A stretch of DNA of 46,776 nt from Thermoleophilaceae bacterium (GCA_040509835.1 JBEVKE010000133.1:1-46776), one strand, 5' to 3'; counted from the first letter of the stretch, positions 21,140 through 38,772 are shown. Made by a program: numbers and translations. The notes: generated by a model from the letters alone, not told the origin.

Positions 21140-22618
21140 TCAGACCGACGCCGCGTCGGCCCAGTCGTCCACCCCGGTGGAGAGCGCCTCCGGCGGCGGG
21201 GGAAGCGGGTCGTAGCCGTGGATGAACGACACCCACTTGGGCTCGATGGAGTAGCGGCGATCGGCGAACACCGTGCGGAAGGTCTCGCCGATTATCGCGA
21301 GGTCGAACGCCATCGAACGGTGCTTGAGGTAGTAGAGGTCGTGCGACAGCTTCCACGCTGATCCCACGTCCGATCCCGCGTACCCGCATCGCACCTGCGC
21401 CCACCCGGTGAGGCCCGGCTTGAGGAGGTGACGGCGCTGATAGAAGGGGAGGACCTCCTCGAGCTGCTGGACGAATTCCGGCTGCTCGGGGCGCGGGCCG
21501 ACGAGGCTCATCTCCCCGCGCAGGATGTTGTACAGCTGCGGCAGCTCGTCGAAGTGGGTCCTGCGCAGAATGCGGCCGACCCGGGTCACGCGCGGGTCGT
21601 CGGGGTCGGCCCACTGCGCGCTCGGATCCGCGACCCTCATGGTGCGGAGCTTCCACAGCGTAAGCGTGCGGCCGGCCTCGCCGATGCGGGACTGCTTGAA
21701 AAAGACGGGGCCGCCATCCAGCTTGATCGCGAGGGCGCTCAGGAGAATGAGCGGCGCGGTGGCAAAGGCGGCAATCGTGGAGACGACGATGTCCACAGCG
21801 CGCTTCGATGCCGGAGCCACGGTCCGGAACTTCGGGTGCATGATGTACTGGAACCAGGCCGCGTTGATCTCGGCCACCGGCACGTGACCGAAGATGTCCT
21901 CGTAGAACGAGGACAGCTCCCAGAGGCGCACGGGCAGGTGGAGGCAGGTGGTCGATAGCTCCTCGAAGACGCTGAAGCGCGGCGCTTCGCTCGTGAGGAC
22001 AAGCAGGTCGATGTCATTCGTCTCGATCACGTCGGCAAGGCCGCCCAGCGCGCCTAGCGTCGGCACCTCGCCGTCCACGCGCGAGGGGCCGGCCGCGATC
22101 GCGATTCGACCCACCACCTGATACCCCGGGATGCCCACCAGGGCCAGCTCGCGCGCGACGTCCGTGGCGTTGCGCTGCGAGCCGATGATCGCGGTCCGCA
22201 GCGGGCCCTGGCGCGTGCTTCCGCCCGACAGGGAGCACGCGACGGAGGCGGAGGCCGCCGCGGTGGCTACAAGAATCATCTCGGCGGTCGAGAGCCCCGG
22301 CAGGCCGGTGACGGCGTTCACGAGCGTCAGCGCGCAGATACCGAGCAGCGGTGACAGCACCACCAGCGGGTTGCGCATGAGCGGGAGCAGGTTGGCCCAT
22401 GCCCGTCGCTCCGGCACGACGAACGCCGCGCACGCAAACGCGAGCGTGGTCAGCACCACGGCCTCGAAGGCCTCTTCGGCGAGCAGCCCCGCCGTGAGCG
22501 CGGCAACCGCCGGCACCAGCACGCGCTCCGAGAGCAGCGGACCCCTTTGGGCCGCGCGTCTGGGCGCGTGAACCGCGTGCAGCGGCCCGTCCGTCGTGCT
22601 GTCGGTGATGAGGCCCAT
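21140..22618 (-). CDS. Polyprenyl-phosphate sugar-1-phosphate transferase (WbaP/CpsE-type priming glycosyltransferase)
   Basis: 492 aa with N-terminal TM segments and a central Rossmann-like domain. C-terminal bacterial sugar transferase domain: FKQSRIGEAGRTLTLWKLRTM...DELPQLYNILRGEMSLVGPRPE...KPGLTGWAQV. Confidence 0.9.
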   Translation of the reverse strand: MGLITDSTTDGPLHAVHAPRRAAQRGPLLSERVLVPAVAALTAGLLAEEAFEAVVLTTLAFACAAFVVPERRAWANLLPLMRNPLVVLSPLLGICALTLVNAVTGLPGLSTAEMILVATAAASASVACSLSGGSTRQGPLRTAIIGSQRNATDVARELALVGIPGYQVVGRIAIAAGPSRVDGEVPTLGALGGLADVIETNDIDLLVLTSEAPRFSVFEELSTTCLHLPVRLWELSSFYEDIFGHVPVAEINAAWFQYIMHPKFRTVAPASKRAVDIVVSTIAAFATAPLILLSALAIKLDGGPVFFKQSRIGEAGRTLTLWKLRTMRVADPSAQWADPDDPRVTRVGRILRRTHFDELPQLYNILRGEMSLVGPRPEQPEFVQQLEEVLPFYQRRHLLKPGLTGWAQVRCGYAGSDVGSAWKLSHDLYYLKHRSMAFDLAIIGETFRTVFADRRYSIEPKWVSFIHGYDPLPPPPEALSTGVDDWADAASV

Positions 22619-22634: not shown

Positions 22635-24092
22635 TCACGTAGGCCGTCCATGAACGGCCCAGGCCCCCGCCGATGCACGTCGATGATAAACGCGGTCCGG
22701 ACGCTCCGCCATTGGCAACCGTACCGCTACCCCGTACATGATCGGTCCAAGCGCGAGCAGGAGCCAGAAGCGCACGTCGTTGCCGTCCGAGAGGAAGAAC
22801 GAGGCCGCCGCGAAGGCGATTATTCCCACCAGGCATCCGCGCGCCAGGTTCGCCATGTCGCGGTCGCTTTTCAGGTCGAACAGCCGCCCGGCACGCCATG
22901 CCGAGCGCGCGCAGCCGAGGACCAGGAGGATCCACAGGATCGCCCCGATGAACCCAGTCTCCGCGAGGAACTGGAGGTAGACGTTGTGCGCCACATGCGG
23001 CTTCTCCGCGATGTTGTGGACCAGCTCCAGCTTGCCCGGCTCGAGCGTGTACTTCGGTGCCTGCTCCACGAAGTTGTCGAGGCCCACGCCGTTGACCGGA
23101 TGGTCCTCCGCGATCCGCCACGCGACGGTCCACAGCGCGGTGCGGCCGGTGCCCGACGAGTCGAACTCGGAGATTCGCTGCCACGCGTGCGGGTTGAAGG
23201 AGAACCAGATCGCCGCAACGGCCACAAGCGTTCCGATCGTGATCGCGACCTGCGCCCGTCGTCCGGAGAAGAACAGGAGCGCGGCAACCGTCGCGATGCC
23301 GGCGGCCACCAGCGCGCCGCGTGACTCCGTGGCGGCGACCGTCACGGTCAGGACGCCCATCGACGCGACGAGCAGCAGATTGGCAACGGGGTGGCGCGGC
23401 CGCAGCAGGCCCGTGGCAAGGACGATCGCCGCGACCATCCCGGCGGCCACGTAGTTGGGGTCGTCGAGGAGCGACCCGAACCGCTGTCTGTCGGCCGCGG
23501 CCAGCGCGAGCGAATCCGACGAGGTGCTGAGCGATTGGCCGAGGATCCCGATCAGCGCGGAGAGCAGGGCTCCGACCACGAGCATCGCGACGAACAGTCG
23601 CGCCTGCCGCGGCGTCGAGATCGTCGTGACCGACACCAGGAAGGCGATACCGGCGAGCCACCACTGCCAGAGGTGGGCGATGCCGTTCTCGGGGTGAAGC
23701 GCCCAGCTCACCGAGAGGGTGATCCAGGTGAGGAGCACGAGCCCGAGCAGGATCAGGCGCCGGTGGAGCGCGAGGAGCGTCCGCGTCGCGGCGCCGCGCG
23801 CGCGCAGCGACGGCAACCAGGCGAGCAGGATCACCGCGGCGCCGGCCGTGGGCGCCGCCCCGACAAAGCCGAGCGGAGGGAGGAACGCGAACGGCACCCA
23901 GAGGATCACCGCGGCGGGCAGGTTGAGCACCGCCGGAATCACGAACAGCATTCCGAGCAGCAGCGCGGTGGCCTTCTGCAGACCCACGGCGGCGAACGCG
24001 GCGCAGACGGCGAGCAGGCCGAGGCCGAGCACGGTCAGCACCGCGGCCGGCGGGAAGGTCACGGCGGGTTGCCGCAGAGCGCGGGTTGTCAC
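22635..24092 (-). CDS. Wzy-type O-antigen/EPS polymerase (Wzy_C family) membrane protein
   Basis: Polytopic protein with a TESRGALVAAGIATVAALLFF loop motif and HPVNGVGLDNF...HVAHNVYLQFLAETG. Start set at the GTG at 24092, 2 nt after the upstream stop. The track ORF extends to 24245 and would overlap the kinase gene by about 150 bp. Confidence 0.8.
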   Translation of the reverse strand: MTTRALRQPAVTFPPAAVLTVLGLGLLAVCAAFAAVGLQKATALLLGMLFVIPAVLNLPAAVILWVPFAFLPPLGFVGAAPTAGAAVILLAWLPSLRARGAATRTLLALHRRLILLGLVLLTWITLSVSWALHPENGIAHLWQWWLAGIAFLVSVTTISTPRQARLFVAMLVVGALLSALIGILGQSLSTSSDSLALAAADRQRFGSLLDDPNYVAAGMVAAIVLATGLLRPRHPVANLLLVASMGVLTVTVAATESRGALVAAGIATVAALLFFSGRRAQVAITIGTLVAVAAIWFSFNPHAWQRISEFDSSGTGRTALWTVAWRIAEDHPVNGVGLDNFVEQAPKYTLEPGKLELVHNIAEKPHVAHNVYLQFLAETGFIGAILWILLVLGCARSAWRAGRLFDLKSDRDMANLARGCLVGIIAFAAASFFLSDGNDVRFWLLLALGPIMYGVAVRLPMAERPDRVYHRRASAGAWAVHGRPT

Positions 24093-24093
24093 G

Positions 24094-25641
24094 TCAGTGC
24101 GTGGAGCGCGTGGTCCGCTCGGGCACGGGCTCTTCGACGAACAGCTCGCGGCGCCGGTGGTGGCCGTACGCGTAGTAGCTGCTGGTCTGACCCGGGGTGT
24201 CGCCGACCACCAGGAAGCCCGCCGGATCGGTCCCTGTCCTGGCAAGCAGGTCGGCTGTCGTCGACAGGCCGACGCGATCCGAATTGCCGGGCCGGACGAC
24301 GATCACCACCTCGTCGACGAAGCCGAGCAGCCGCAGCGCGTCGCTGATCTCGCCGAGCGGCGGCGTGTCGATGATCACGTGATCGGCGAGGCTGCGCGCC
24401 TCAGCAACGAGCTGCGGAAGCCGGGCGTAGAGCGGGTCGAGGAGTATGGCGTCGCCCTGCAGGAGCTCCGTCGCGAGGACCGACACCGAGGGCAGCGAAG
24501 GCGCGGTGCGGAGCAGGGGGACGAGGTGATCCGGCGACAGGAGCTCGTTCAGGTGCACCGGGTCCGGCACCGCCAGCCGGTGTGCCACGTCAGCTTTCCT
24601 GAGGTCCAGATCGAGCAGGATGACGCGCTCGCCCGAGGCGGCCAGCGTGGCAGCCAGGTTGATCGCCGACGTGGTCTTGCCGTCTCCCGTGGAAGCACTA
24701 GTGACCATGAGGACGCGGCCGCCCTCATGGCTGCTGGGCGGCAGCTGGAGCAGGAGCGTGCGGCACGCCTCGCGAACCGCGGGCGCGACCGTCCACGCGT
24801 CCGTCGGGCGCGCGCGGCCGAGCTGCCGGCGTTGAAGCGGCACGCGTGCGAGTACCGGGAGCGGCAGGATGGACAGCGCTTCGTCCTCGTCCCGAATGCG
24901 CCGGTCGAGCAGCTCGAGCAGCACCGCGGCCGCGGCTCCGAGCGCGAGGCCGGCGAAGCCGGCGAGGACCAGGATGACCAGCGGGCTGGCGCCCGATGGC
25001 GAGGTCGGCACCTCGGCCGCCTGCGAGATCGAGAGCGTCGGGTCGTTGCCGGTGCCCACGTTCTCGAGCTGGTTGATGCGGTCCTCGAGCTGCGCCCCTG
25101 CCTCGGTGTTCGTCGATCCAAGCGCCTTCTGACGGGACTTGAGCTGGTCGAGCAGCGGGCCGACGTCGCGGTCGAGCACGTCGCGCCGAACCGCCAGCGT
25201 CTGTTTCGTGAAGGTGTTCGCGAGCTTGGCGGCCGTCTCTGCGTCGCCCGCGGACCCGGTCACGGCGAGGATGTTGCTCTCGCCCACGGGCTCGACGGTC
25301 ACGGCGTCCATCACCTGCTGGGTGGTCCAGTCCGGTCCAAGGATCTTCGCGGTCCGGCGCGCCGCCTCCGGCGACTCGACGAGGCTCGCGGCGGTCTGGA
25401 CGGTGCGCGTGGGGTCACCCGAGTCGCGCAGGAGCTGGAGTCCCCGGAAGGTCTGATCGTCCTGTGGCAGCGGGGTGACCAGTAGGTTCGCTGTGGCCTC
25501 ATACGAGGGATTCCGCCCCACGGCGAGCCACAGGAGGGCGAGCACGACGAAGCCGACCGTGGTCAGGACGACCAGCAGCCTGTGCGCACGCAGCGCACGC
25601 AGGTATGGACCAAGCGCGGGCTCGGCCGTGGGAGGATGCAT
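24094..25641 (-). CDS. Polysaccharide co-polymerase (Wzz domain) fused to a BY-type tyrosine autokinase
   Basis: N-terminal TM + Wzz-like periplasmic coiled region + second TM. Kinase domain with Walker A (VTSASTGDGKTTSAINLA), ILLDLDLRKA, and a C-terminal Tyr cluster (SSYYAYGHH). Start set at the ATG at 25641, because the upstream in-frame extension to 25749 has low GC3 (GAT, ACT, GGA, GAA, CAA, TAT). Confidence 0.85.
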   Translation of the reverse strand: MHPPTAEPALGPYLRALRAHRLLVVLTTVGFVVLALLWLAVGRNPSYEATANLLVTPLPQDDQTFRGLQLLRDSGDPTRTVQTAASLVESPEAARRTAKILGPDWTTQQVMDAVTVEPVGESNILAVTGSAGDAETAAKLANTFTKQTLAVRRDVLDRDVGPLLDQLKSRQKALGSTNTEAGAQLEDRINQLENVGTGNDPTLSISQAAEVPTSPSGASPLVILVLAGFAGLALGAAAAVLLELLDRRIRDEDEALSILPLPVLARVPLQRRQLGRARPTDAWTVAPAVREACRTLLLQLPPSSHEGGRVLMVTSASTGDGKTTSAINLAATLAASGERVILLDLDLRKADVAHRLAVPDPVHLNELLSPDHLVPLLRTAPSLPSVSVLATELLQGDAILLDPLYARLPQLVAEARSLADHVIIDTPPLGEISDALRLLGFVDEVVIVVRPGNSDRVGLSTTADLLARTGTDPAGFLVVGDTPGQTSSYYAYGHHRRRELFVEEPVPERTTRSTH

Positions 25642-25781
25642 CGACTGGCCTGAGGCGGGCTGCAAGCTCCGGTGAGTGTAGAGGCGGGGATAGCCGTTTT
25701 GCTCCAGCTTGCGGTGCGCTTCCATGGGTCCAGTATCGGCAGCCGGCACCCGCGCCTTTGATACAAGCCGCTTGTTCAGGC

Positions 25782-27014
25782 ATGCGACTCGCGTACATCG
25801 TCTCCCGTTTCCCTCACGCCTCCGAGACGTTCATCGCGCGCGAGCTGCGGGCGCTGGAGGGCGTCCGAGGGGACGAGGTCGAGCTGATGTCGCTGTTTCC
25901 GCCGGTCGACCCGAAGGTCCATCCCTCGGCCGCGCCCTTCGTGGACCGCCTCTTCCGGCCCGGCGTGGGGGAGGCGCTGGCGGCACTTGGCTGGTGGTCG
26001 CTCCGGCGGCCGTTCCGGCTTGCGACGAGCATCGGGATCATGCTCCGAGAGCACGTGCGGAGTCGCCGCGTCCTGCCGCGCGCGCTTGTCACGATCCCGC
26101 TGGCTGCGGCGCACGCGCGCGCGGTGCAGCGCGGCGTGGATCACGTGCACGCGCACTACGCGACCTATCCGGCGCTCGCGGCCTGGCTGTCATGGCGCCT
26201 GACCGGAACGCCCTACAGCTTCACGGCGCACGCGCACGACATCTTCGTCGACCAGAGCATGCTGAGGCGCAAGTTGGCGGATGCGGCCTTCACCGTGACG
26301 GTCTCCGATTACAACCGCCGCTTTCTCTCGGAGTACGGCGACCCGGCGCGGATCCACGTCGTGCATGCGGGGATCGACACCGCCGCGCAGCCGTTCAGGC
26401 CCCGATCCGTGCCGGTGGAGGGTCCGGTGCGCGCGCTCTGCGTTGCGAGCCTTCAGGAGTACAAGGGGCACGTCGTGCTGCTGGAGGCGCTGGCCGGGTC
26501 GCCAGTGCTCGAGCGCGTGGCGCTCGACCTCGTGGGCGGGGGCCCGCTGCGCTCGGGCCTCGAGAGCCGGGCGCGCGAGCTCGGCCTTGCGGACCGTGTG
26601 CGGTTCCACGGCAGCGCCACCGAGGACGCCGTGCGCGACCAGCTCGACCGGGCCGACCTCTTCGTGCTGGCGAGCATCGTGGCTCGGAGCGGTCAGATGG
26701 AGGGGCTGCCCGTCGTCCTGATGGAGGCGCTCGCCGCCGGCCTGCCGGTCGTCGCGACGAGACTGTCCGGGATCCCCGAGCTCGTGGCTGACGGCCAGAC
26801 CGGTCTCCTCGCCGCACCGGGCGACGCCGCCGCGCTTCGCGACGCGCTCGAACGGGTCGTTAGCGGCGACTTCCAGCCCGACCTGACGCAGGGGAGGGCC
26901 CTCGTCGAGGAGCAGTTCGAGGCGGCCGAGGCCGCCGCGCGGCTGCGCGAGCTGTTCGCGACGGCCCAGGGCGGGTTACAACAAACGTCCAGCACGTTGG
27001 CGACCACCACTTGA
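25782..27014 (+). CDS. Glycosyltransferase family 4 (WcaL-like)
   Basis: Start at the ATG at 25782 (MRLAYIVSRFPHASETFIAREL...). C-terminal EGLPVVLMEALAAGLPVVATRLSGIPELV motif. Confidence 0.85.
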   Translation: MRLAYIVSRFPHASETFIARELRALEGVRGDEVELMSLFPPVDPKVHPSAAPFVDRLFRPGVGEALAALGWWSLRRPFRLATSIGIMLREHVRSRRVLPRALVTIPLAAAHARAVQRGVDHVHAHYATYPALAAWLSWRLTGTPYSFTAHAHDIFVDQSMLRRKLADAAFTVTVSDYNRRFLSEYGDPARIHVVHAGIDTAAQPFRPRSVPVEGPVRALCVASLQEYKGHVVLLEALAGSPVLERVALDLVGGGPLRSGLESRARELGLADRVRFHGSATEDAVRDQLDRADLFVLASIVARSGQMEGLPVVLMEALAAGLPVVATRLSGIPELVADGQTGLLAAPGDAAALRDALERVVSGDFQPDLTQGRALVEEQFEAAEAAARLRELFATAQGGLQQTSSTLATTT

Positions 27015-27063: not shown

Positions 27064-28329
27064 ATGCATCGCAGAATCGGACTCCTCACCCTGATCGTCG
27101 CGGCACTGTCCCTCGTGCCGGCGAGCCCCGATGCGGAGGCCGGCATGCGTCGCGTCAAGCCCGCTCGCGTGGTCGGGAAGGTTGTCGTCTACCGGCTTCC
27201 ACACCTGAAGCCGGCCCGCGTGCGCCGCGCCCGGATCCAGGCGCGGGGCGTCCGGCGCCCGATCGCGCTCCGCCGCATCAGGCGCGCGGTGCGACGGGGA
27301 GTTCTGCGCACGCGAATCGCCCGGCGCGAGCGGCGCCGCTCGCGGCTCGTGCTCGTGACCGGGGCGGCCCACGCGCAGCGGGGCGTCTGCTCGTGGCCCG
27401 ATGCGTGCTGGCGGCCGTACGCCGACTCCAGTCCGTTCAATCGCCCGCTGCCCCCCGACCCGCGCCTCATGCCGAACTCGTCGGCGATCGTCCATAGCCT
27501 CGCCGAGCGGCCGGACAAGGTGACGGTCGGGAACTCGGCCACGAGCTGGGACTACTCGCACCCCATCTACTTCTCGCGGCCCGGAGACCCGGAGTTCACG
27601 CTTCACTGCTACGAGTCGAGCTGGGGCCGCTGCGCGATCGAGGGGATGCGTGTGCGGGTGCCCGACAGGGCGCGCGCGGCGCGGGGCGAGGATGCGCACA
27701 TGACCATCGCGGACCGCGAGTCGGGATGGGAGTACGACCTCTACAAGGTGCGCTCGAAGCCGGCAGGCGGCGGCACGCTCGAGTTCCGCTGGGGCGGGCG
27801 GACGCGCATCGACGGGTCCGGCACCGGCTCGGGCGCAACGGCGTCCGGGTTCGGGAACCTGGCCGGGATCATCCGGGCGCAGGAGCTCCAGGCCGGCGAG
27901 ATACGGCATGCGCTCTTCATGTTGATCCAGTGCAGCTCGGGCACGACCGTCTACCCGGCGACCGGGGGCGCCGGCAGCCGCTGTTCCGGGGGCGCCGAGG
28001 CCGCGCCGATGGGCGCGCGGGTCCAGCTCGACATGTCCGACGCCGAGATCGCCTCGCTCGACGTTCCGCGCTGGAAGAAGACGATCCTCCGCGCCATGGC
28101 CCAATACGGCATGTACTTCGGGGACACGGGCAGCGGCGGCTGGGGGATCCAGATGGAGTCGGGCGCGACCTACACGAGCTTCGGACTGCCCGACGCGCTC
28201 GCGTCGTTCGCGCGAGCGGCCGGCGTGCCGGGGGAGGGCGGCGAGCACGTGTTCGACATCGGGGCCGGGGTCGAGTGGCGCTCGCGCCTGCGGATCATCG
28301 ATCCGTGCGAGTCACGCGGCGACTGCTGA
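27064..28329 (+). CDS. Secreted protein of unknown family, paralog A (Arg-rich N-terminal region + ~310-aa Cys-containing conserved domain)
   Basis: Signal peptide MHRRIGLLTLIVAALSLVPASPDAEA. The start was chosen by analogy with paralog B (MHRPLRTF...); the GTG at 27043 is an alternative. It aligns by eye with 30854..32296 from PDACWRPY to the C-terminal IDPCESRGDC. Confidence 0.7.
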   Translation: MHRRIGLLTLIVAALSLVPASPDAEAGMRRVKPARVVGKVVVYRLPHLKPARVRRARIQARGVRRPIALRRIRRAVRRGVLRTRIARRERRRSRLVLVTGAAHAQRGVCSWPDACWRPYADSSPFNRPLPPDPRLMPNSSAIVHSLAERPDKVTVGNSATSWDYSHPIYFSRPGDPEFTLHCYESSWGRCAIEGMRVRVPDRARAARGEDAHMTIADRESGWEYDLYKVRSKPAGGGTLEFRWGGRTRIDGSGTGSGATASGFGNLAGIIRAQELQAGEIRHALFMLIQCSSGTTVYPATGGAGSRCSGGAEAAPMGARVQLDMSDAEIASLDVPRWKKTILRAMAQYGMYFGDTGSGGWGIQMESGATYTSFGLPDALASFARAAGVPGEGGEHVFDIGAGVEWRSRLRIIDPCESRGDC

Positions 28330-29461
28330 TCGCCTCGAGCATCCGGTCCGCGACCGCGTCCCATGTGAACCGCTCCCTGTAGCGGCTCGCGCCTGCATTT
28401 CCCAGCGCGCGGCACAGGTCGGGCGCCGTCGCCAGCTCGCGCATGCGCTCGACCAGGGCGTCCTCGTCCCCGGGTTTCACCAGCAGTCCCGTCACGCCGT
28501 CCTCAATCAGCTCGGGCAGCGCGCCGCCGGTACTGCCGATGCACGGCAGGCCCGCCGCCATCGCCTCGAGGACCGCCACGCCGAGCGGCTCGTAGAGCGA
28601 CGGCATGACGAACACGGTGGCGCGCCGGTACAGGTCGGCCATCGCGCCGGCGCCCTCGCTGCCCTCGCGCGACACGCGGCCGAGCACCTGAACGCCCGGC
28701 ACGTCGACGGACAGGTTGGCGGGCCCCGCGATCGTGAGCTCCGCGTCCGGCAGCTCCCGGCGCAGCCGCTCGAACGCCCGCAGCACGGTCGGACCGCCCT
28801 TGCGCTCCCACTGCTTGCCGACGAACAGGAAGCGCGCCGGAGCAAACTCGCGTTCCGGCACGTCCGTCGTGTCCACATTGGCGCCGGCGCCCACCGTGAC
28901 GACCTTGTCGGGTGCCTGGCCGAAGTCTCCGATGAACGACTCTCGGAGCTGCTCGCTCATGCAGAAGATCAGGTCGATCGAGTCGTACAGGCGGCGCTCG
29001 TAGCGCAACGACCAGCGCGCGAACCGCGAGGCGGGCTCGATCCGGAGGTCCGGACGTCTGAGGAAGCCCGCCAGATTGCCGTCGTGGTACGAGCACCGCA
29101 ACACGTGCGGACCCGGGCGGCCGGGATCGAAGTAGCCGGTCAGCTGTAGGAGCGTGTCGGCGCCGTCCAAGGCGGCCGCGGCACGCGATGCGCTCACCCG
29201 GCTCATGGCGGCCCGGGCGAGCGGGCTGAGGAACGAGGCGCCGGCGTTCGCCCGCTGCTTCCAGCGCTCGATGTCAGGCGCAAAGCTGGCGGCGCGCTCG
29301 ACGATCGTGATCGCGTCGGCGCGGCCGTCCACGGCCGCCGCCAGGGCCCCGCGGCGCTCGAGCGCGCGAAGGAGGGCCGCGCTCGAGCCTGAGAACGTCT
29401 CGGGCGCGAATGGGGGGCCGGGTGTCACGGCAAGGATGCTGGGACCGGGGTTCACCTGCAC
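28295..29461 (-). CDS. Glycosyltransferase family 4
   Basis: 388 aa. C-terminal MPSLYEPLGVAVLEAMAAGLPCIGSTGGALPELIEDGVTGLLV motif. GTG start. Confidence 0.85.
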   Translation of the reverse strand: MQVNPGPSILAVTPGPPFAPETFSGSSAALLRALERRGALAAAVDGRADAITIVERAASFAPDIERWKQRANAGASFLSPLARAAMSRVSASRAAAALDGADTLLQLTGYFDPGRPGPHVLRCSYHDGNLAGFLRRPDLRIEPASRFARWSLRYERRLYDSIDLIFCMSEQLRESFIGDFGQAPDKVVTVGAGANVDTTDVPEREFAPARFLFVGKQWERKGGPTVLRAFERLRRELPDAELTIAGPANLSVDVPGVQVLGRVSREGSEGAGAMADLYRRATVFVMPSLYEPLGVAVLEAMAAGLPCIGSTGGALPELIEDGVTGLLVKPGDEDALVERMRELATAPDLCRALGNAGASRYRERFTWDAVADRMLEAISSRRVTRTDR

Positions 29462-29478
29462 CTAGACTCTGACGCGCG

Positions 29479-30654
29479 ATGCGATTGGCCGTCGTCGAGA
29501 GCGCCCCGCGCGGCGGCTTGTTGCACTACGCGGCACAGCTGGCGGCGGCGCTCGCGGCCCGCGGCCACGAAACGAGCCTGGTCACGGCGCGCGACGGCGA
29601 GCTGGACTCGCCGCCGCCGGGCGTGCGCCTCCGGGACGTGCTGCCGGCGGCGGTGCGCACGCCGACCGAGCCCCCCTCCGGCGTGGCCTACCTGATGCGC
29701 CGGGCGGCGATCGCGCTCCGCGTCGTGGCCGCCTCGCTGCGCACGCTGGCGGTCGTCGTCCGCGGCCGGTACGACGGTGTCGTGCTGGTGGACGACCTGA
29801 GCGTGGCGCCGGCCGCGGCGGGCGCGCTCGCGCTGACCCTTGTGCCGCGCGGACCGGTCGTCGCGGCGATCTGCCACGAGCCGCGCCCACGGAGCCGGCG
29901 CGGCGACGGTGATCTGTACGCGCGGTCGCCGGCCCTCCTCGGGCTGTTGCGAGCGTTCTACGCTCGAGCCGACGCGGTCTTCGTGCACGGCGAGGCGAGC
30001 CGCGACCAGTTCCTCGACACGTGGCGCGCCCGCCGGGTCGACGTGATCCCCCACGGCGACTCGCGGCTGCTCGCGGGCGAGCCGCCCGCGCAGGCGGAGG
30101 ACGAGACGATCCTGTTCTTCGGCGAGTGGCGGCGCGCCAAGGGCATCCACGTGCTGATGGACGCCTTCGACCTGGTGGCCGCACGACGGGAGACCGCGCG
30201 GCTGACGATCGCGGGCGTGCCGACGCCCGACGCCGATCCCGACGCGGTGCGGAGGTGGGCGGTGCCGTACGGCGAGCGGGTGACGCTCATCGACCGGTAC
30301 GTGCCGATCGCAGAGCTGAGCGCGCTGTTCGCGCGCACGCGCGTCGTCGCGACGCCGTACGTGGCGGGATCCCAGAGCGGGGTGGTGCACCTGGCGATGT
30401 CGATGGCGCGAGCAGTCGTGGCGAGCGACGTCGGCGAGCTACCGCGTGCCGTGGCCGATGGCGTGACTGGGCGGGTGGTGCCGCGCGGCGACACCGCCGC
30501 GCTCGCCGATGCGCTCGAGGAGCTGCTGGCCGATCCGGGGCTGGCGCGGCGGTGGGGCGAGGCCGGCCGCGAGCGGGTGACCGGCGAATTCGGCTGGGAG
30601 CGCGTGGCTGAGCGCGTCGAGGCTGCGCTCGAGCCTGGACGCGCGTCCAGCTAG
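29479..30654 (+). CDS. Glycosyltransferase family 4
   Basis: 391 aa. MRLAVVESAPRGGLLHY..., ATPYVAGSQSGVVHLAMSMARAVVASDVGELPRAVADGVTGRVV. Confidence 0.85.
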   Translation: MRLAVVESAPRGGLLHYAAQLAAALAARGHETSLVTARDGELDSPPPGVRLRDVLPAAVRTPTEPPSGVAYLMRRAAIALRVVAASLRTLAVVVRGRYDGVVLVDDLSVAPAAAGALALTLVPRGPVVAAICHEPRPRSRRGDGDLYARSPALLGLLRAFYARADAVFVHGEASRDQFLDTWRARRVDVIPHGDSRLLAGEPPAQAEDETILFFGEWRRAKGIHVLMDAFDLVAARRETARLTIAGVPTPDADPDAVRRWAVPYGERVTLIDRYVPIAELSALFARTRVVATPYVAGSQSGVVHLAMSMARAVVASDVGELPRAVADGVTGRVVPRGDTAALADALEELLADPGLARRWGEAGRERVTGEFGWERVAERVEAALEPGRASS

Positions 30655-30853
30655 GCCTGCCGGCGCGCGACCGCCGGCGCGCGGATGCCGACAGTTCGTC
30701 TGACCGAACCCCAAACCGGCACTTCTCGACAAGGGCACCCCCGCCGCGAGGCGGGTCCGCAAAGCCACGGGGCTCCTGACGGAGCCGGCCGGGCTGCCGA
30801 ACGAAGATCGCGTGAGCGGTGCCCAGACGTAGGCACGGAGGTGTCGAAGCGTC

Positions 30854-32296
30854 TTGCACCGCCCGCTGCGCACCTTCATTCGAATCGCCACCCTCGCCCT
30901 GATCGCGGCCGCCGCGCAGGCGGGGGTCGCCGAGGCGCGGGTCGCCGTCTACTCGCCGAGTGGGGTGACGTTGCAGAGCGCCAGCTTCCGGGTGCAGGGC
31001 GTGCGTGCCGTGAGCGTCCGGGCGGCCGTGCTCCGGGTCGGGCGCTCGCATCGCGCCCTGTCTCTGCGCCGGGTGCGCTCCGCCGTCCGCCGCGGGCGTG
31101 TCAATGTGCGCGTTCACCGGGCCCGCCGGGCGGGTCGCCGCCTGCGCCTCGTCCTGCGCCTCCGCGCGTCGGCGGCGACCACGCCGACACCTGCGCGCGA
31201 CCGTCGCAAGGGCGGCCCGGCGCCCACTCCGCCGTCGCCGACGACCGATCCCGTGCCCTCCGAACCGCCCCCCACCGACCCCGTGCCCTCCGACCCGCTT
31301 CCCTCCGGGCCGAGCGGCGACTGCCCGTCGTCACCGACGGGCTTCCAGGCCGGAGCGTGGCCGGATGCGTGCTGGCGTCCATTCGCGCCAACCTCGCCGT
31401 TCAACAGGCCGATCCCCGACACCCCCAGGCTGGTGTCCAACTCCGACGCGATCGTCCAGCGGATGGTGTCGCTGTACAGGGGCCCGGCCAAGATGACGGC
31501 GGGCGACGCGGACACCGAGTACGACTACACGCACCCGCTCTACTACGCGACCGCCGGCGACCCGCTTTTCACGCTTCACTGCTACGAGACGAGCTGGGGC
31601 GTGTGCCCAATCGAGGGCCACAGGATCCGGATCCCGGACGCCGCCCGTCCCGCGGGCGGGGGCGACGCGCACCTCGCGGTGATCGACTACTCGACGGGAT
31701 GGGAGTACGACCTCTACAAGGTGCGCTCGAAGCCCGCCGGCGGCGGCACGCTCGAGTTCCGCTGGGGCGGGCGGACGCGGCTGGACGGCGACGGTCTCGG
31801 GACCAACGCCACCGCCGCCCAGTTCGCGCTCAGCGCCGGGGTGATCCGTCCCGAGGAGATCGCGGCCGGCCGAATCGACCACGCGCTGTTCATGGTGGTG
31901 AAGTGCACGGCCGGCAAGGTCTACCCGGCGCTCGGGGGCGGGGCCCAGTGCGCGGATGGCACGAACGCCCCGGCGGGCGGCATGCGCTTCCAGCTCGCCT
32001 ACAGCGACGCCGAAATCGAGGCGCTCGCGGTCCCGCGCTGGAAGAAGACGATCCTCCAGGCCCTCCGCACCTACGGCGCGTACATCGGCGACACCGGTGG
32101 TGGCGGGTTCAACTTCCAGTTCCAGTCCGGCTCCACCTACACGAGCTTCGGCCAGGCCGACAGGCTCGTCGAGTGGGCGCACACACAGCCGGGAGTCAGC
32201 CTCTACAACGGCAAGTACGTGCTCGATCTCGCACCCGGCGTCGACTGGTCGCGCCTCCGCGTGATCGACCCCTGCGTCACCAGCGGCTCCTGCTGA
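30854..32296 (+). CDS. Secreted protein of unknown family, paralog B (Arg-rich N-terminal region, Pro-rich linker, conserved Cys-containing domain)
   Basis: TTG start with GGAGG (30837..30841) upstream. Signal peptide MHRPLRTFIRIATLALIAAAAQAGVAEA. The C-terminal ~310 aa are colinear with paralog A (CWRPF...HCYETSWGVC...GWEYDLYKVRSKPAGGGTLEFRWGGRTR...VPRWKKTIL...IDPCVTSGSC). Confidence 0.75.
   Translation: MHRPLRTFIRIATLALIAAAAQAGVAEARVAVYSPSGVTLQSASFRVQGVRAVSVRAAVLRVGRSHRALSLRRVRSAVRRGRVNVRVHRARRAGRRLRLVLRLRASAATTPTPARDRRKGGPAPTPPSPTTDPVPSEPPPTDPVPSDPLPSGPSGDCPSSPTGFQAGAWPDACWRPFAPTSPFNRPIPDTPRLVSNSDAIVQRMVSLYRGPAKMTAGDADTEYDYTHPLYYATAGDPLFTLHCYETSWGVCPIEGHRIRIPDAARPAGGGDAHLAVIDYSTGWEYDLYKVRSKPAGGGTLEFRWGGRTRLDGDGLGTNATAAQFALSAGVIRPEEIAAGRIDHALFMVVKCTAGKVYPALGGGAQCADGTNAPAGGMRFQLAYSDAEIEALAVPRWKKTILQALRTYGAYIGDTGGGGFNFQFQSGSTYTSFGQADRLVEWAHTQPGVSLYNGKYVLDLAPGVDWSRLRVIDPCVTSGSC
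31244..31303 (+). repeat. 2 x 30-nt tandem repeat inside the paralog B linker (TDPVPSEPPP / TDPVPSDPLP)
   Basis: Direct reading: accgatcccgtgccctccgaaccgcccccc followed by accgaccccgtgccctccgacccgcttccc. Confidence 0.8.
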
Positions 32297-32349: not shown

Positions 32350-33864
32350 ATGACAGAAAAGCCACCCGACACTCGCATCGGCGCACGCACGCTGCGTGGC
32401 GCCTTCTGGGCGTACTTCTCGTACGTCGGCGGCCGGCTGGTGATTCTGGTCGCGACCTCGATCCTGGCGCGGCTGCTCACGCCCGAGGACTTCGGCATCG
32501 TGGGCTTCGCTCTGGTCTTCATGGCGCTGCTCGAGACCGTGAAGGACCTGGGTCTGGGTCAGGCGCTGGTCGCCAGCCGTCCACAGGACGTCTACGAGCG
32601 GGCGGACACCGTGTTCGTGGCAGGGGTCGGCCTCGGCGTGCTCATGAGCGCGATCGTGGCCGCGATCGCCCCGCTGGCGGCTGACTTCTTCGACGAACCC
32701 AAGCTGCTCGCCATCGTGCCCGTGCTCGGCCTGAACTTCCTGATCCGGTCGCTCGGCGCGACGCACTACGCCCTCGCCCAGAAGGAGATGCGCTTCCGCA
32801 CGCGCACGATCGCCGAGTTCTCAGACGTCTTCGTGCGCGGCACGGTCGGCGTCGTCCTGGCCCTCACGGGCGCCGGCGTGTGGTCGCTCGTGCTCGGCTA
32901 CGTGGCCGGCACGATCGCGCTCGTGATCGCGCTGTGGATCCTGGTGCCGTGGCGGCCCCGCCTGCGGCTCGACCGCCGGCACCTGCCGGGCCTGCTCAAG
33001 TTCGGGGGAACCCTGACGGGCGTGGACATCACGGCGGCGATCACGAACAACGCCGACTACCTGTTCGTCGGCAAGGTCCTCGGCCCCGCCGCCCTGGGCG
33101 TCTACACGCTCGCCTTTCGGCTTCCTGAGCTGGCGATCGTGAACGTGGCGACCGTGGCCGGCCTCGTGCTCTTCCCGGCGTTCGCGAACGTCCCGCGCGA
33201 GTCGCTCTCGCATGCGTACCAGGTCTCGCTCCGCTACATGCTGATGGTCTGCATGCCGCTGGCGGCAGGGGTCGCACTGCTCGCGGCGCCGCTCGTCGAG
33301 CTTCTGTTCGGGTCCCAGTGGGGCGGTGCCGTCGATCCGATGCGGCTGCTCACGGTGTACGCCTTCGCGGTGACCATCGGCATCCCGGCCGGTACGGCCT
33401 ACAAGGCGGTCGGCCGTGCCGGCGTCCTCCTAAAGCTGGCCATCCCGCGGACCATCATGCTGGTCGTCGGCGTCTGGATCTTCGTGCACAGCGGACTCAC
33501 CGCGGTGGCCGCGACCCACGCGGTGGTGGCCGGGCTCTTCTCGGTGATCGGCATCGCGCTCGCGTCGCGGCTCCTGGCGGTGCGCGGCAGAGACCTGCTC
33601 CGCCTGGGCGCCGCACCGCTCGTCGCCACGGCCGCGATGTCGGTGGTCGTGTTCGCGATCGATTCGCTCTTCGACTCGGCCCTGGTCAGCGTGCTCGCGG
33701 GCGCGGCCGCGGGCGCGGCGGTCTACCTGGCGGTGCTCAGCATGCTGGCGCGCGACGCCGTCGACGATCTGCGCACGAAGCTGCGGAGCCCGCAGGTGCC
33801 GGCCGAGGCGTCGGGCGAGCTCGATCCGCTGACGGTCACGCGCGAGACGGATGTGATCGCGTGA
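32350..33864 (+). CDS. Wzx-type polysaccharide flippase (MOP/PST superfamily)
   Basis: 504 aa with about 14 TM segments. N-terminus RTLRGAFWAYFSYVGGRLVILVATSILARLLTPEDFGIVGFALVF is typical of PST-family flippases. Confidence 0.85.
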   Translation: MTEKPPDTRIGARTLRGAFWAYFSYVGGRLVILVATSILARLLTPEDFGIVGFALVFMALLETVKDLGLGQALVASRPQDVYERADTVFVAGVGLGVLMSAIVAAIAPLAADFFDEPKLLAIVPVLGLNFLIRSLGATHYALAQKEMRFRTRTIAEFSDVFVRGTVGVVLALTGAGVWSLVLGYVAGTIALVIALWILVPWRPRLRLDRRHLPGLLKFGGTLTGVDITAAITNNADYLFVGKVLGPAALGVYTLAFRLPELAIVNVATVAGLVLFPAFANVPRESLSHAYQVSLRYMLMVCMPLAAGVALLAAPLVELLFGSQWGGAVDPMRLLTVYAFAVTIGIPAGTAYKAVGRAGVLLKLAIPRTIMLVVGVWIFVHSGLTAVAATHAVVAGLFSVIGIALASRLLAVRGRDLLRLGAAPLVATAAMSVVVFAIDSLFDSALVSVLAGAAAGAAVYLAVLSMLARDAVDDLRTKLRSPQVPAEASGELDPLTVTRETDVIA

Positions 33865-35000
33865 CGGCCGACGAGCTGCATGTCCTCGTCCTCATCGACT
33901 CGCTCACGCACGGCGGCGCGGAGCTGCTCCTCACGGACTTCGTCGAAGCCGCGGAGGGGGCCGGCATCCGCGCGTCGGTCGCGTATCTCGGAGAGCGCGA
34001 CGGCAGCCCGAGCGCGGCCCGTCTGCGCGAGCTCGGCCTCGAGCCCCAGTGCGTCCAGATCGATGGCCTGCTCCATCCGGCCTCGCTGCGCCGCCTGCGC
34101 CAGCACGTCAGGAGCGCGCGGCCGGACATCGTCCACACGCATCTCGCGTACGCCGACCTGATGGGAGCCCTGGTGGCCCGGTCGCTCGGAATCCCGGCCG
34201 TCTCGACCATCCACGTGACGGACTGGGGCGCTCGAGGTGTCCGGGACCGCGTGCGCCGCCGGCTGATCGCGTCGGTGCGGCGTCGATTCGCGGCCTCGGT
34301 CGTGACCGTGTCGGACGCGGCGCGCGAGGCGCTGCTCGCCGCCCGCCTCGACCGGCCGGGCCACGTCGTGACCATCCACAACGGCGTGGCGGCCACGCCC
34401 GCCACCGGCGCCGGCGTCGCCGTCCGAGCGGAGCTTGGCCTCGAGCCGGACGCGCTCGTCGTGGCGCAGGTGGCGGTGCTCAGGGCAGGCAAGGGGCACG
34501 CCGTGGCGGCCGAGGCCGTGGCGCGGCTCCGCGCCGAACATCCTGGCCTACGGCTCGTCGTGGCCGGAGAGGGCCCGGCGCGCGCGGACGTCGAGGCCGC
34601 GTTGCGGCCGCTCGGTGACGGTGCCCTGATGCTCGGCCACCGCGACGACGTGATGGCCCTCCTGGATGCGGCCGACGTCCTTCTGCACCCATCCGAGCTC
34701 GACGCGTTTCCCGGCGCGGTCATGGAGGCGATGGCGGCCTCGATCCCGGTGGTGGCCACCCGTGTGGGAGGGATCCCGGAGATCGTCTCGGACGGCGAGA
34801 CCGGGACGCTCGTCTCCGGCCCCGCCACGCCCGTCGGACTCGCCGAGGCGCTCGCTCCGATCCTCGCGGATGCGGAGCTGCGGCTCAGGATGGGGGAGGC
34901 GGGTCGCGCGCGCTACGAGCGCGAGTTCACCGCCGACGGCTGGGTGCGGCGGACCCGAGCGCTGTACGACCGCGTGCTCCGGGAGAGGAAGCGCGGGTGA
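33861..35000 (+). CDS. Glycosyltransferase family 4
   Basis: The GTG at 33861 overlaps the wzx stop (GTGA). VLVLIDSLTHGGAELLL..., HPSELDAFPGAVMEAMAASIPVVATRVGGIPEIVSDGETGTLV. Confidence 0.85.
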   Translation: MTADELHVLVLIDSLTHGGAELLLTDFVEAAEGAGIRASVAYLGERDGSPSAARLRELGLEPQCVQIDGLLHPASLRRLRQHVRSARPDIVHTHLAYADLMGALVARSLGIPAVSTIHVTDWGARGVRDRVRRRLIASVRRRFAASVVTVSDAAREALLAARLDRPGHVVTIHNGVAATPATGAGVAVRAELGLEPDALVVAQVAVLRAGKGHAVAAEAVARLRAEHPGLRLVVAGEGPARADVEAALRPLGDGALMLGHRDDVMALLDAADVLLHPSELDAFPGAVMEAMAASIPVVATRVGGIPEIVSDGETGTLVSGPATPVGLAEALAPILADAELRLRMGEAGRARYEREFTADGWVRRTRALYDRVLRERKRG

Positions 35001-35788
35001 GCGACGCGCTCGTCCTGTGTTACCACGGGGTCAGCGAGGACTGGCCGGCGGACATCTCGATCAGCCCGGGGAGGCTCGCGGACCAGATCCGCTGGTTCCT
35101 CGCCCGCGGCCACCGCCCGGTCACCTTCACGGCCGCCGCCACCGGCGAGGAGCGTGGTCGAGTCCTTGCCGTGACGTTCGACGACGCCTATCGCAGCATC
35201 GGGGAGCTGGCCCTGCCGCTCCTGTCCGAGCTGGGCGTGCCGGCCACCGTCTTCGCGCCCACCCGGTTCGTCGCCGACCCGGGCGCGCGCGGCTGGGACG
35301 GAACCGACATGTGGGTCGGTACGCAGTGGGAGGACGAGCTCGCGGTGATGAGCTGGAACGAGCTTGGCACGCTCGCGGACGCGGGGTGGGAGATCGGGTC
35401 CCACACCCGCACGCATCCTCGCCTCACCCGGCTCGGCGACGCCGCGCTGAGGGACGAGCTCGGGACGTCGAGGGTCGAGCTGGAGGAGGCGCTGGGACGC
35501 CCGTGCCGGTCGCTCGCCTATCCGTACGGCGACACCGACCGGCGCGTGGCCACGGCGGCGGCGGCGGCCGGCTACAGCGCCGCGGGCGGGCTGCTGCCCG
35601 GCCGAGTGAGCGCGCGCGACCCGCTCCTGTTTCCGCGCATCTCGGTGGGGCGAGGCTGGGCGGACGCGACCCTGCGGCGGCGCGCGCGGCCGGTGCATCG
35701 CCGCCTCCAGAGGAGCAGGGCGTGGCCGGCGGTTCCGGTGCTCCTCCGCGCGGCGCGAACGATGCGCCGTCGCGCCCGGCTGAAATGA
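34997..35788 (+). CDS. Polysaccharide deacetylase (CE4 / NodB homology domain)
   Basis: 263 aa. VTFDDAYRS, ATVFAPT, MSWNELGTLADAGWEIGSHTRTHPRL and LAYPYGDTD are the NodB motifs. 4-bp overlap with the upstream GT4 gene. Confidence 0.85.
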   Translation: MSDALVLCYHGVSEDWPADISISPGRLADQIRWFLARGHRPVTFTAAATGEERGRVLAVTFDDAYRSIGELALPLLSELGVPATVFAPTRFVADPGARGWDGTDMWVGTQWEDELAVMSWNELGTLADAGWEIGSHTRTHPRLTRLGDAALRDELGTSRVELEEALGRPCRSLAYPYGDTDRRVATAAAAAGYSAAGGLLPGRVSARDPLLFPRISVGRGWADATLRRRARPVHRRLQRSRAWPAVPVLLRAARTMRRRARLK

Positions 35789-35940
35789 TTCCGAGCGTGC
35801 GGTTGCTGGGGACGGTCCTCTATTGGGTGGCGGTGGTCGCCATCTCCGTCGTGCTCGTGATCCTCCTGATCCTCTTCTTCGAGTCGCGCGACCAGGCGGA
35901 CGTCGGCGCGACCGCTCCTCCGGCGTCGATGCCGGCGTGA
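35785..35940 (+). CDS. 51-aa single-pass membrane microprotein
   Basis: Its ATG overlaps the deacetylase stop (ATGA, 35785..35788) and its stop overlaps the next gene's GTG (GTGA, 35937..35940). MIPSVRLLGTVLYWVAVVAISVVLVILLILFFESRDQ... has one clear TM segment. It is hidden in the track inside a long alternative-frame ORF (34666..35940). Confidence 0.55.
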   Translation: MIPSVRLLGTVLYWVAVVAISVVLVILLILFFESRDQADVGATAPPASMPA

Positions 35941-37136
35941 GCACGGACGGCGCCTCGTCGCCGCTCAGGTTCGTGACGCGAGGCTGGCGGAGGGTGGATG
36001 GCCGGCCGGCCGCGACTCGGCGAGCCATCGGGGCGCGGCTGCGCCACTCGAACGCGTATCTCGCCTGGTCCGACGCGGACACGCCCCGCCAGATCGTCCC
36101 GACCGCCAGACCCGATGTGGCCCGATGGGTGCGGCGCACGTTCGAGCCATGGGCGCGCCGGAAGCTCGACGCCGCCACTTGGAGCGCGCTCAGGGCCGGC
36201 TCTCTCGTCGTGGGCGAGGGACCCGGATTGGCCCAGCTCGGAGCCGAGGAGGCGCTCGGCCGGTCGCTCGACGGAGCGGTGCTGGGCTGCGTCTCGGCCT
36301 CCGGGCACGTCCAGGCCAAGCTCCTGTGCTTCGTGTTCGAGCGCGGCGAACGGGAGCCTTCGGTCGTGGTCAAGGGCATCCCGCTCGAGGGCGAGGGGAG
36401 TCGTCTCCTCGCGGAGGCGAGCGCGGTTGCGGCGATCAGGAAGCTGCTGTCGGGCGCGACCGCCGCGGCGCTTCCACCCGAGCCGGTCTGGGCGGGTGAC
36501 GTGGGCGGCCACGACGTGGTGGTCGTGGAGCCCGTGGACCCGCTGGCCGGGGCGACGGGGCACGAGGACCGCGATGCGGCCCTCGGGTGGCTCGCGCGCC
36601 TCCAGGACGAGACCGCACACGACGAGTGGGGGACCGACGCGGACCTCGCCTCGCTCGACGAGGTGCTCGAGTTCGCGTCGTCTGAGTCCGGCCTCGGCGC
36701 GGGGGCGCTCCGGACCATGTGGCGCGAGCAGTGGGATGACCTCGGGCGAACGACCATTCCCCGCTGCGCCGTGCACGGCGACTTCTGGCGCGGCAACCTC
36801 GCCGTCGATGGCTTGCGCCTCAGGGTGTACGACTGGGAATGGGCGGCGCTCAGCGGCCACCCGCTGTTCGACCCGTGGACCTACGAGCTCGCCGCGCTGC
36901 GGGGCCGCGCCGAATCGCCCCACGAGGTTGCCGCCGCGCTCGCGGACGCGTGCCGGCGCGTCGAGGCGCAGCTCGAGGGGCGCGGCCTCGATCGCCGCTT
37001 GGCGCGCGCATTTCTGCTGCCTGCGGCCGCGGACATCGCCTACCGGGTACGCCGGGTGCGCGGCACGCCGCCCGACCACGAGGAGCGGGCGCGCGCGCTC
37101 CTGGCAGGGGCCGCGCGCCTAGTCTCCGGCGGCTAG
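35937..37136 (+). CDS. Aminoglycoside-phosphotransferase/choline-kinase-like (APH fold) kinase
   Basis: The GTG at 35937 is coupled to the microprotein stop. Catalytic loop VHGDFWRGNLAV and metal-binding VYDWEWA match the HGDxxxxN ... DWE pattern of the APH family. Confidence 0.7.
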   Translation: MSTDGASSPLRFVTRGWRRVDGRPAATRRAIGARLRHSNAYLAWSDADTPRQIVPTARPDVARWVRRTFEPWARRKLDAATWSALRAGSLVVGEGPGLAQLGAEEALGRSLDGAVLGCVSASGHVQAKLLCFVFERGEREPSVVVKGIPLEGEGSRLLAEASAVAAIRKLLSGATAAALPPEPVWAGDVGGHDVVVVEPVDPLAGATGHEDRDAALGWLARLQDETAHDEWGTDADLASLDEVLEFASSESGLGAGALRTMWREQWDDLGRTTIPRCAVHGDFWRGNLAVDGLRLRVYDWEWAALSGHPLFDPWTYELAALRGRAESPHEVAAALADACRRVEAQLEGRGLDRRLARAFLLPAAADIAYRVRRVRGTPPDHEERARALLAGAARLVSGG

Positions 37137-38743: not shown

Positions 38744-38772
38744 ACGCCTGAGATAAGGAGACTCGCAAGCCC

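Follow-up and report, generated by a model that had tools for sequence, protein, structure and literature searches.

Results

Two predicted secreted paralogs share a C-terminal domain

The window analysed here is the whole of a 46,776-nucleotide stretch of DNA from a Thermoleophilaceae bacterium (GCA_040509835.1 JBEVKE010000133.1:1-46776; G+C ~70%), and the features under study are two open reading frames (ORFs) at positions 27064-32296, both on the plus strand, which we call paralog A and paralog B. Paralog A (27064..28329) encodes 421 amino acids (aa) plus a stop codon, and its ATG start at 27064 is backed by ortholog clusters of 421-422 aa. Paralog B (30854..32296) starts with TTG and encodes 480 aa plus a stop codon, the length also of its own protein cluster (P0084). 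A sequence-only reading of this DNA had described the two as paralogs with a common C-terminal domain of ~310 aa, and alignment bears this out. BLASTP of A against B gave 185 identities over 316 aligned positions (59%; 73% positives, 7 gaps, E 2e-132), a similarity far beyond chance, spanning residues 110-421 of A and 168-480 of B, that is, from 'WPDACWRP' through the last residue. The domain is encoded by 27391..28326 in A, where every core residue is present, including a Glu at domain position 257, and by 31355..32293 in B, the sequence used for structure modelling. All of the shared motif blocks listed in that reading were found, with two corrections to their wording: A reads 'EDAH' rather than 'GDAH', and B reads 'TGWEYD' rather than 'SGWEYD'. 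Conservation of the cysteines was likewise confirmed. Numbered along the 313-aa domain of B, as are all residues below, C6, C76, C84, C184, C199, C307 and C313 are each conserved in at least 90% of 60 family members, and disulfides probably stabilise the domain.

Ahead of this catalytic-type domain, both proteins carry a predicted Sec signal peptide, an Arg-rich cationic module and a linker. The signal peptides, assigned by reading the sequences, occupy residues 1-26 of A (27064..27141, MHRRIGLLTLIVAALSLVPASPDAEA) and residues 1-28 of B (30854..30937, ending AAAQAGVAEA). Each has a basic n-region, a hydrophobic core and AEA at positions -3 to -1 of the predicted cleavage site, as the earlier claim of signal peptides would have it, and both proteins are thus predicted to be exported. 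In the AlphaFold2 model of full-length A the signal peptide has a predicted local distance difference test (pLDDT) score below 50.

The cationic module comprises residues 27-100 of A (27142..27363; 34% Arg, net charge +27) and residues 29-105 of B (30938..31168; 28% Arg, net charge +22). The Arg-rich segment noticed earlier is therefore real in its composition, although it is not a loose segment but a folded module of ~75 aa: in the model of A it has a pLDDT of 84-94 and consists of five strands, a helix at residues 69-78 (RRIRRAVRRG) and two more strands. The modules of A and B align only weakly with each other (a second BLASTP high-scoring segment pair, E 0.057), and the B-like pattern recurs in the relatives P0081, P0036 and P0074. 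A stretch with at least 20% Arg precedes the domain in about half of the family members sampled (89/193). A word-based search with the cationic module alone retrieved only orthologs and three frameshifted assemblies. The latter (P0314, P0315 and P0316) are public A-ortholog sequences in which an intact N-terminal module runs into out-of-frame Arg/Ala/Ser-rich text; the frameshifts are probably assembly or long-read indel errors and not signs of pseudogenes.

The linkers differ between the paralogs. That of A is short (residues 101-114) and disordered in the full-length model, whereas B has a Pro/Thr/Ser-rich linker of residues 106-165 (31169..31348) that A lacks. B-clade orthologs of 596 and 714 aa, from another genome (L001), carry a LamG module between the N-terminal module and the C-terminal domain.

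The domain belongs to no described family

Searches of Pfam-A and NCBIfam with A and B returned no match at E<=1, the Pfam models for glycoside hydrolases (GH), polysaccharide lyases (PL), carbohydrate esterases (CE) and carbohydrate-binding modules (CBM) included, and in all 60 members scanned the domain was left uncovered by any Pfam model. Matches in PDB by sequence, by a profile of 60 sequences and by a broad profile of 26 sequences stayed at chance level (E 0.2-0.5). The AlphaFold2 model of the B domain, built from a 60-sequence alignment, was of high confidence (mean pLDDT 97.3; predicted template modelling score 0.93) and shows a mixed, beta-rich fold with seven helices; the model of full-length A (pLDDT 85.5) has the same fold in its C-terminal domain. 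Folds were compared using Foldseek. Among 350,542 PDB chains the B-domain model had no neighbour at E<=1e-3 (best E 2.2, template modelling score (TM) <=0.16), and full-length A had no neighbour in PDB either. The statement of the sequence-only reading that no family could be recognised therefore holds across Pfam, NCBIfam, PDB sequence and profile searches, and fold comparison with PDB: the domain belongs to no described family, and has an apparently new fold within a known functional theme.

The family is large. A phmmer search against 1.84 billion representative sequences found 3,551 clusters at 50% identity with E<=1e-3 (513 with E<=1e-30), mostly from Thermoleophilia, and a word-indexed search found more than 900 relatives, nearly all of them annotated as 'hypothetical protein' in metagenome-assembled genomes (MAGs) of Thermoleophilia. 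Homologues in cultured strains include those of Actinoplanes nipponensis NBRC 14063 and Conexibacter sp. CPCC 205762. No description of the domain was found in the literature on Gordonia phage tail glycosidases, Thermoleophilia exopolysaccharide (EPS) clusters, actinophage depolymerases and new GH families.

The domain is homologous to a domain of actinophage tail proteins

When the B-domain model was compared with the predicted viral structures of BFVD using Foldseek, the matches were phage proteins: a 985-aa protein (E 9e-20, TM 0.69), the minor tail protein of Gordonia phage Guillaume (E 3e-19), a phage protein of 760 aa whose annotation lists parallel beta-helix repeats, and two stand-alone proteins of uncultured phages. 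Both paralogs also matched PHROG 17388, 'minor tail protein' (E 2.8e-10 for A and 1.1e-8 for B). A tblastn search of phage genomes with the B domain found nothing at E<=1e-3, and the same type of search with the A domain at E<=10 found 46 Gordonia phages, with 27-29% identity over ~81% of the domain; we accept these low-threshold matches because the profile and fold comparisons agree with them. Alignment of the bacterial alignment with six phage proteins by hhalign gave a probability of 99.4% and an E of 8e-22 over 235 columns, with N17, D69, D104, D111, D119, R165, E168, H176 and D246 common to the bacterial and phage domains. The domain of A and B is thus homologous to the central domain of actinophage minor tail proteins (PHROG 17388), and of the evidence added to the sequence-only reading, this homology speaks most strongly for a role in glycan degradation.

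The phage proteins combine variable tail-attachment N-termini, the common central domain and a conserved, beta-rich C-terminal domain. A and B, by contrast, are chromosomally encoded, start with a signal peptide and cationic module, and end with the domain itself. The phages carrying the homologues infect Gordonia terrae 3612, a standard host in the laboratory. In Camerico the gene is one of the minor tail genes that follow the tape measure gene; in Forza it adjoins the major tail protein gene; and in KidneyBean and Asapag it is downstream of lysin B. Forza gp90 (L091:3555-6509; 985 aa) joins a NodB/CE4 deacetylase (PF01522, 25.5 bits) to the studied domain and the C-terminal beta-rich domain. 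Stormageddon gp18 carries the label 'glycosylhydrolase' in GenBank, an annotation only.

Relatives with 29-38% identity were also present on 10 IMG/VR phage contigs, three of which were inspected. Two of the three have terminase and portal genes, and on these the domain forms a stand-alone ORF that shows no signal peptide and lacks the C-terminal Cys pair; on the third (L097) it lies inside an 813-aa protein beside a 'tail protein with lysin activity'. The stand-alone ORFs (L093:7890-8993 and L094:7698-9014) sit amid head and packaging genes, one between portal and a MuF-like gene and the other between terminase and portal. The KidneyBean gene (L010) is likewise just upstream of HNH, terminase and portal genes, an odd recurrent place for a 'tail' gene.

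A set of polar residues is fixed across the superfamily

Among 115 close copies of the domain, little or no variation is seen at N17, D104, H106, E117, D119, R165, E168, H176 and D246. A 26-sequence alignment reaching down to 20-25% identity, with phages and distant bacteria, narrows this set: P9, N17, P70, G147, G162, R165, I174, H176, P191, A192, G209, Y240, G241 and D246 are fully invariant, each of D104, E168 and E257 is kept by at least 90% of the aligned proteins, and only the acidic residues Asp and Glu are found at position 119. The candidate catalytic residues proposed earlier survive in part. The Asp of 'DAH', the Asp of 'WEYD' (Asp or Glu) and the Asp of 'GDTG' are conserved superfamily-wide; the His of 'DAH' (H106), the Glu of 'WEYD' (E117) and the Thr-Gly of 'GDTG' (T247/G248) are not, being replaced in phages by Ser, Ala and Q/S-type residues, respectively. 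Four residues that are invariant or nearly so, R165, E168, H176 and N17, had been absent from that list.

Position 257 varies. Glu is found there in A, in 100 of the 115 close copies and in all but two of 24 other distant or phage sequences, including every phage protein. B has Gln (CAG, 32123..32125), as do its closest ortholog (L018) and five other copies; the change could have altered the catalysis of B, or a Glu may not be needed at this position.

Two peptidase assignments were tried and rejected. An aspartic peptidase was suggested by 'GDTG', of which only the Asp is conserved (relatives read DQS, DNS, DRG or DSA), and neither a Pfam match to an aspartic peptidase nor a match to such a fold was found; for a LAS-type Zn-metallopeptidase there is a single universally conserved His and again no fold match.

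A and B lie in a Wzx/Wzy-type polysaccharide locus

The genes around A and B form a Wzx/Wzy-type polysaccharide locus, and Pfam searches bear out, orientation included, the order read earlier from the sequence (paralog A, convergent GT4, divergent GT4, paralog B, wzx). A GT4 gene on the plus strand (about 25782..27014; Glycos_transf_1 and Glyco_transf_4, start placed from relatives of 399-412 aa) ends 49 bp upstream of A. A second GT4 gene, on the minus strand (28295..29461), is convergent with A and overlaps its 3' end by 35 nucleotides; a third, on the plus strand (29479..30654), diverges from the second across a 17-bp gap and lies upstream of B. Directly downstream of B is a gene for a Wzx-type flippase (32350..33864, plus strand; Polysacc_synt_3, E 1.3e-76), and B and wzx are presumably co-transcribed because the gap between them is only 53 bp. 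The plus strand continues with a GT4 gene ending at 35000, a CE4 deacetylase gene (34997-35788) and a gene for an APH-fold protein (35823-37136), followed on the minus strand by a GT4 gene (37119-38096) and a sortase gene (38093-38743). On the other side of A, on the minus strand, are genes for a Bac_transf priming transferase (21140-22618), Wzy_C (22635-24245) and a Wzz/BY-kinase protein (24094-25749).

The association with polysaccharide genes was examined across genomes using the best 80 of 161 confirmed matches in species-representative genomes, which fall into 77 distinct loci. Their hosts are Thermoleophilaceae, Solirubrobacteraceae, Conexibacter, Baekduia and Capillimicrobium, together with one Acidimicrobiales MAG and Actinoplanes nipponensis. 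Marker proteins taken from the window served as tblastn queries against up to 8 kb on each side of every copy. A homologue of Bac_transf, Wzy, BY-kinase or Wzx was found within 8 kb of 60 of the 77 copies (78%), and of 40 of the 47 with full flanks; counting GT4 and deacetylase genes as well raised the figure to 65 of 77. Given the small fraction of a genome that such loci occupy, we infer that 78% far exceeds expectation. The sequence-only reading had named a distribution mostly outside polysaccharide loci as evidence that would speak against it, and the close members proved to lie mostly inside (60/77). Six homologues were also looked up singly: five were in syntenic or rearranged EPS loci, and the sixth, a fusion to a peptidoglycan (PG)-binding module, was amid cyclic di-GMP (c-di-GMP) and signalling genes.

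Two to four copies of the domain occur per locus at 22 loci. In a maximum-likelihood tree of the 115 domain copies, A clusters with the A-position genes of two relatives and B with the Wzx-adjacent genes of the same two relatives; clustering by position indicates an old split between A and B, with the place of each gene conserved. Recent tandem duplications of their own are seen in many other lineages of the tree, and arrays of three or four tandem domain genes are found inside the EPS loci L067, L068, L074 and L076.

Copies outside EPS loci have a setting of their own. In a Conexibacter isolate (L081:7881-8972) and an uncultured Actinomycetes MAG (L077, match at 8001-8954) the arrangement is conserved as metG, tatD, (ksgA), ispE, the domain protein, a PucR-like regulator, an EAL phosphodiesterase and glmU. 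EAL and HD-type c-di-GMP genes also neighbour the PG-binding fusion P0074 (L004/L005), which makes the pairing with c-di-GMP breakdown enzymes a recurrent one. The position of non-EPS copies beside c-di-GMP EAL phosphodiesterases would fit a role in matrix turnover.

Two further genes of the window were also noted. The long ORF at 38740-40494 (minus strand), beside the sortase gene, is a high-GC shadow of a real gene on the plus strand (38773-40578), which encodes a GTP-dependent phosphoenolpyruvate carboxykinase (PEPCK_GTP, E 2e-171). At 18649-20562 (plus strand) is a gene for a membrane protein with a C-terminal TPR-like tail, which has no Pfam match at E<=1e-3 and is the counterpart of 688-700-aa Wzy_C+TPR proteins in related loci; in the relatives the Wzy_C+TPR gene is followed by a 97-aa ORF (L001 3341-3634, L002 3702-3995).

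Fusion partners and proteins with several copies

Pfam modules found beside the domain in the 60 members scanned were LamG, PG_binding_1/3, CBM60, CBM_4_9, CBM26, dockerin, fn3 and SNase, and distant relatives carry fused GH114, beta-helix/Pectate_lyase_3 or He_PIG modules; the partners other than SNase are typical of carbohydrate-active enzymes. The domain also occurs two to four times within single polypeptides, as in P0124 (1691 aa, four matched stretches), P0195 (1613 aa) and P0011/P0017-P0021 (711-733 aa), P0011 having two full copies. In the two-copy proteins every conserved motif is present in both copies, which are without the C-terminal Cys pair.

Discussion

A predicted exported glycan-cleaving enzyme

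Our preferred reading, to which we give about an even chance of being correct, is that A and B are modular secreted glycan-cleaving enzymes of a new family that act on the polysaccharide made by their locus, with hydrolases most likely and lyases possible. We favour a modular, exported carbohydrate-active enzyme because the predicted architecture is that of an exported protein with targeting-type modules, the genes lie in EPS loci, the fusion partners are of the type found in such enzymes, the domain recurs on phage tails and its polar residues are fixed. That the polar set is fixed across hosts whose glycans must differ is more readily explained by a catalytic centre than by a binding site. 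The Sec signal peptide would export both proteins, and the cationic module (+22 to +27) could hold them on the anionic cell surface or polymer. The ~310-aa domain would then cleave glycan chains in an endo-acting manner, through a putative acidic/His/Arg centre made up of D104, D/E119, E168, D246 and usually E257, with R165, H176 and N17. Action would take place outside the membrane on the Wzx/Wzy polymer and might serve to trim or size it or to release it. A and B, as old and separately conserved paralogs, probably differ in specificity or activity. In actinobacterial phages the same domain, carried on tail proteins, would cut through the host surface glycan.

A wider scenario, which we offer tentatively and rate as short of probable, takes the domain as the founder of a new family of carbohydrate-active enzymes whose fold is not represented in PDB and which is common to the EPS loci of Thermoleophilia (and some other Actinomycetota) and to actinophage tails and virions. 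Bacteria would employ their copies in processing or dispersing their own matrix, and phages would breach it by the same chemistry; tandem duplication, to as many as four copies, would reflect co-diversification of polymer and enzyme, possibly driven by phages.

Several observations weigh against assigning such a role to A and B. The B-domain model resembles none of the GH, PL or CE folds, which leaves the bond cleaved, and catalysis itself, inferred rather than established. The Gln of B at the otherwise conserved E257 may mean that the residue is dispensable or that B is not a normal catalyst. The figure for EPS association covers relatives at least 48% identical and is set against an expectation gauged from the share of a genome that such loci take up. 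Tandem copies in one polypeptide (P0011, P0124) are more usual for binding modules, and fusion to other catalytic domains (GH114, NodB, beta-helix) equally fits an accessory role. Finally, the PG_binding fusions and the phage genes near lysin B point to the wall and not to EPS.

The last of these points belongs to an alternative that we judge unlikely, in which the domain is a cell-wall hydrolase that cuts peptidoglycan or a wall-linked glycopolymer, opening the thick monoderm wall in places for export or anchoring of the polymer and, in phages, for penetration by the tail. PG_binding_1/3 modules are fused to the domain in P0074 and another member, non-EPS copies occupy the conserved metG-tatD-ispE...glmU region of Conexibacter-type genomes, the KidneyBean and Asapag genes follow lysin B and the L097 gene neighbours the 'tail protein with lysin activity', and a cationic N-terminal module would bind an anionic wall. 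A generic wall hydrolase, however, would have no need to reside in EPS loci, as 78% of the close copies do, often as 2-4 diversified copies; most of the fused binding modules, moreover, are LamG or CBM types for non-PG glycans, and Foldseek found no likeness to a known PG hydrolase fold in PDB.

It is also conceivable, though improbable, that the domain is a modifying or transfer enzyme that leaves glycosidic bonds intact: an esterase or deacylase, a phosphodiesterase for sugar phosphates, or an enzyme of transfer or release, by which the finished polymer would be freed from its lipid carrier or a protein anchor, or joined to one. Conserved Asp/Glu residues, one His, an Arg and an Asn are not specific to glycosidases, and the GH114 and beta-helix fusions recall bifunctional proteins that pair a hydrolase with a modifying enzyme. 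On the other hand, Forza gp90 already has a NodB deacetylase, beside which a second deacetylase would be redundant, the location on phage tails or virions fits a depolymerase better than a biosynthetic transferase, and no likeness to known esterase or phosphodiesterase folds was seen.

That the domain is a non-catalytic glycan-binding or structural surface protein, organising or tethering polysaccharide and serving phages for receptor binding, would suit its repetition within single polypeptides, the separate catalytic domains that accompany it, the tolerated E257Q variants and repeated tandem gene duplication as a source of diversified binding specificities, but seems unlikely given that 310 aa is large for a binding module, that N17, D104, D/E119, R165, E168, H176 and D246 stay the same across Thermoleophilia, Gordonia phages and a MAG labelled Pseudomonadota, whose ligands must differ, that separate binding-type modules (cationic module, LamG, CBMs) are already present and that the C-terminal beta-rich domain of the phage proteins could be the receptor binder.

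If A and B are indeed glycanases, both their family, a large one with 3,551 clusters at 50% identity, and their fold would be new among enzymes. The family is hosted by Thermoleophilia, abundant soil bacteria that have barely been studied, their matrix polysaccharides hardly at all. The 'minor tail protein' that recurs in phages of Gordonia and Rhodococcus would acquire a function as a host-recognition and depolymerase module, giving a clean case of one catalytic module shared by a host polysaccharide locus and its phages, and the enzymes could offer new specificities for polysaccharide analysis or biofilm dispersal.

Comparison with known systems

The sole demonstrable relatives of the domain are the equally uncharacterised tail domains of phages. 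The central domain of the minor tail proteins of Gordonia and Rhodococcus phages (KidneyBean gp21, Camerico gp27, Forza gp90, Stormageddon gp18) is the same homologous domain, just 23-29% identical to that of A and B, and its function is likewise a prediction only. The phage proteins have neither signal peptide nor cationic module, their central domain being flanked instead by the tail-attachment N-termini and the C-terminal beta-rich domain; most of the conserved Cys are missing, the central domain keeping only two, and H106 and E117 are replaced by Ser and Ala.

Depolymerases common to hosts and phages are known, among them the K5 lyases KflA/ElmA and the hyaluronidases of streptococcal phages, which have beta-helix or triple-stranded folds and known chemistry. 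As in the family described here, a catalytic-type domain occurs both at a chromosomal polysaccharide locus and on phage tails; the A/B domain differs from these in having another fold, no solved relative and a catalytic activity that is predicted.

Secreted or periplasmic glycanases encoded inside EPS loci include ExoK/ExsH (succinoglycan, GH16), PslG (GH39), the hydrolase domain of PelA (GH166), BcsZ (GH8) and AlgL (PL5). The genomic logic is the same as that of A and B, an exported enzyme (in A and B, predicted to be exported) encoded amid the glycosyltransferases, flippase and polymerase of the polymer that it processes or would process. A and B match none of the Pfam models of these enzymes and have no neighbour in PDB, so they are related to them neither in sequence nor in fold. 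They differ further in organisation, the A/B family having 2-4 diversified paralogs per locus, together with a putative cationic targeting module.

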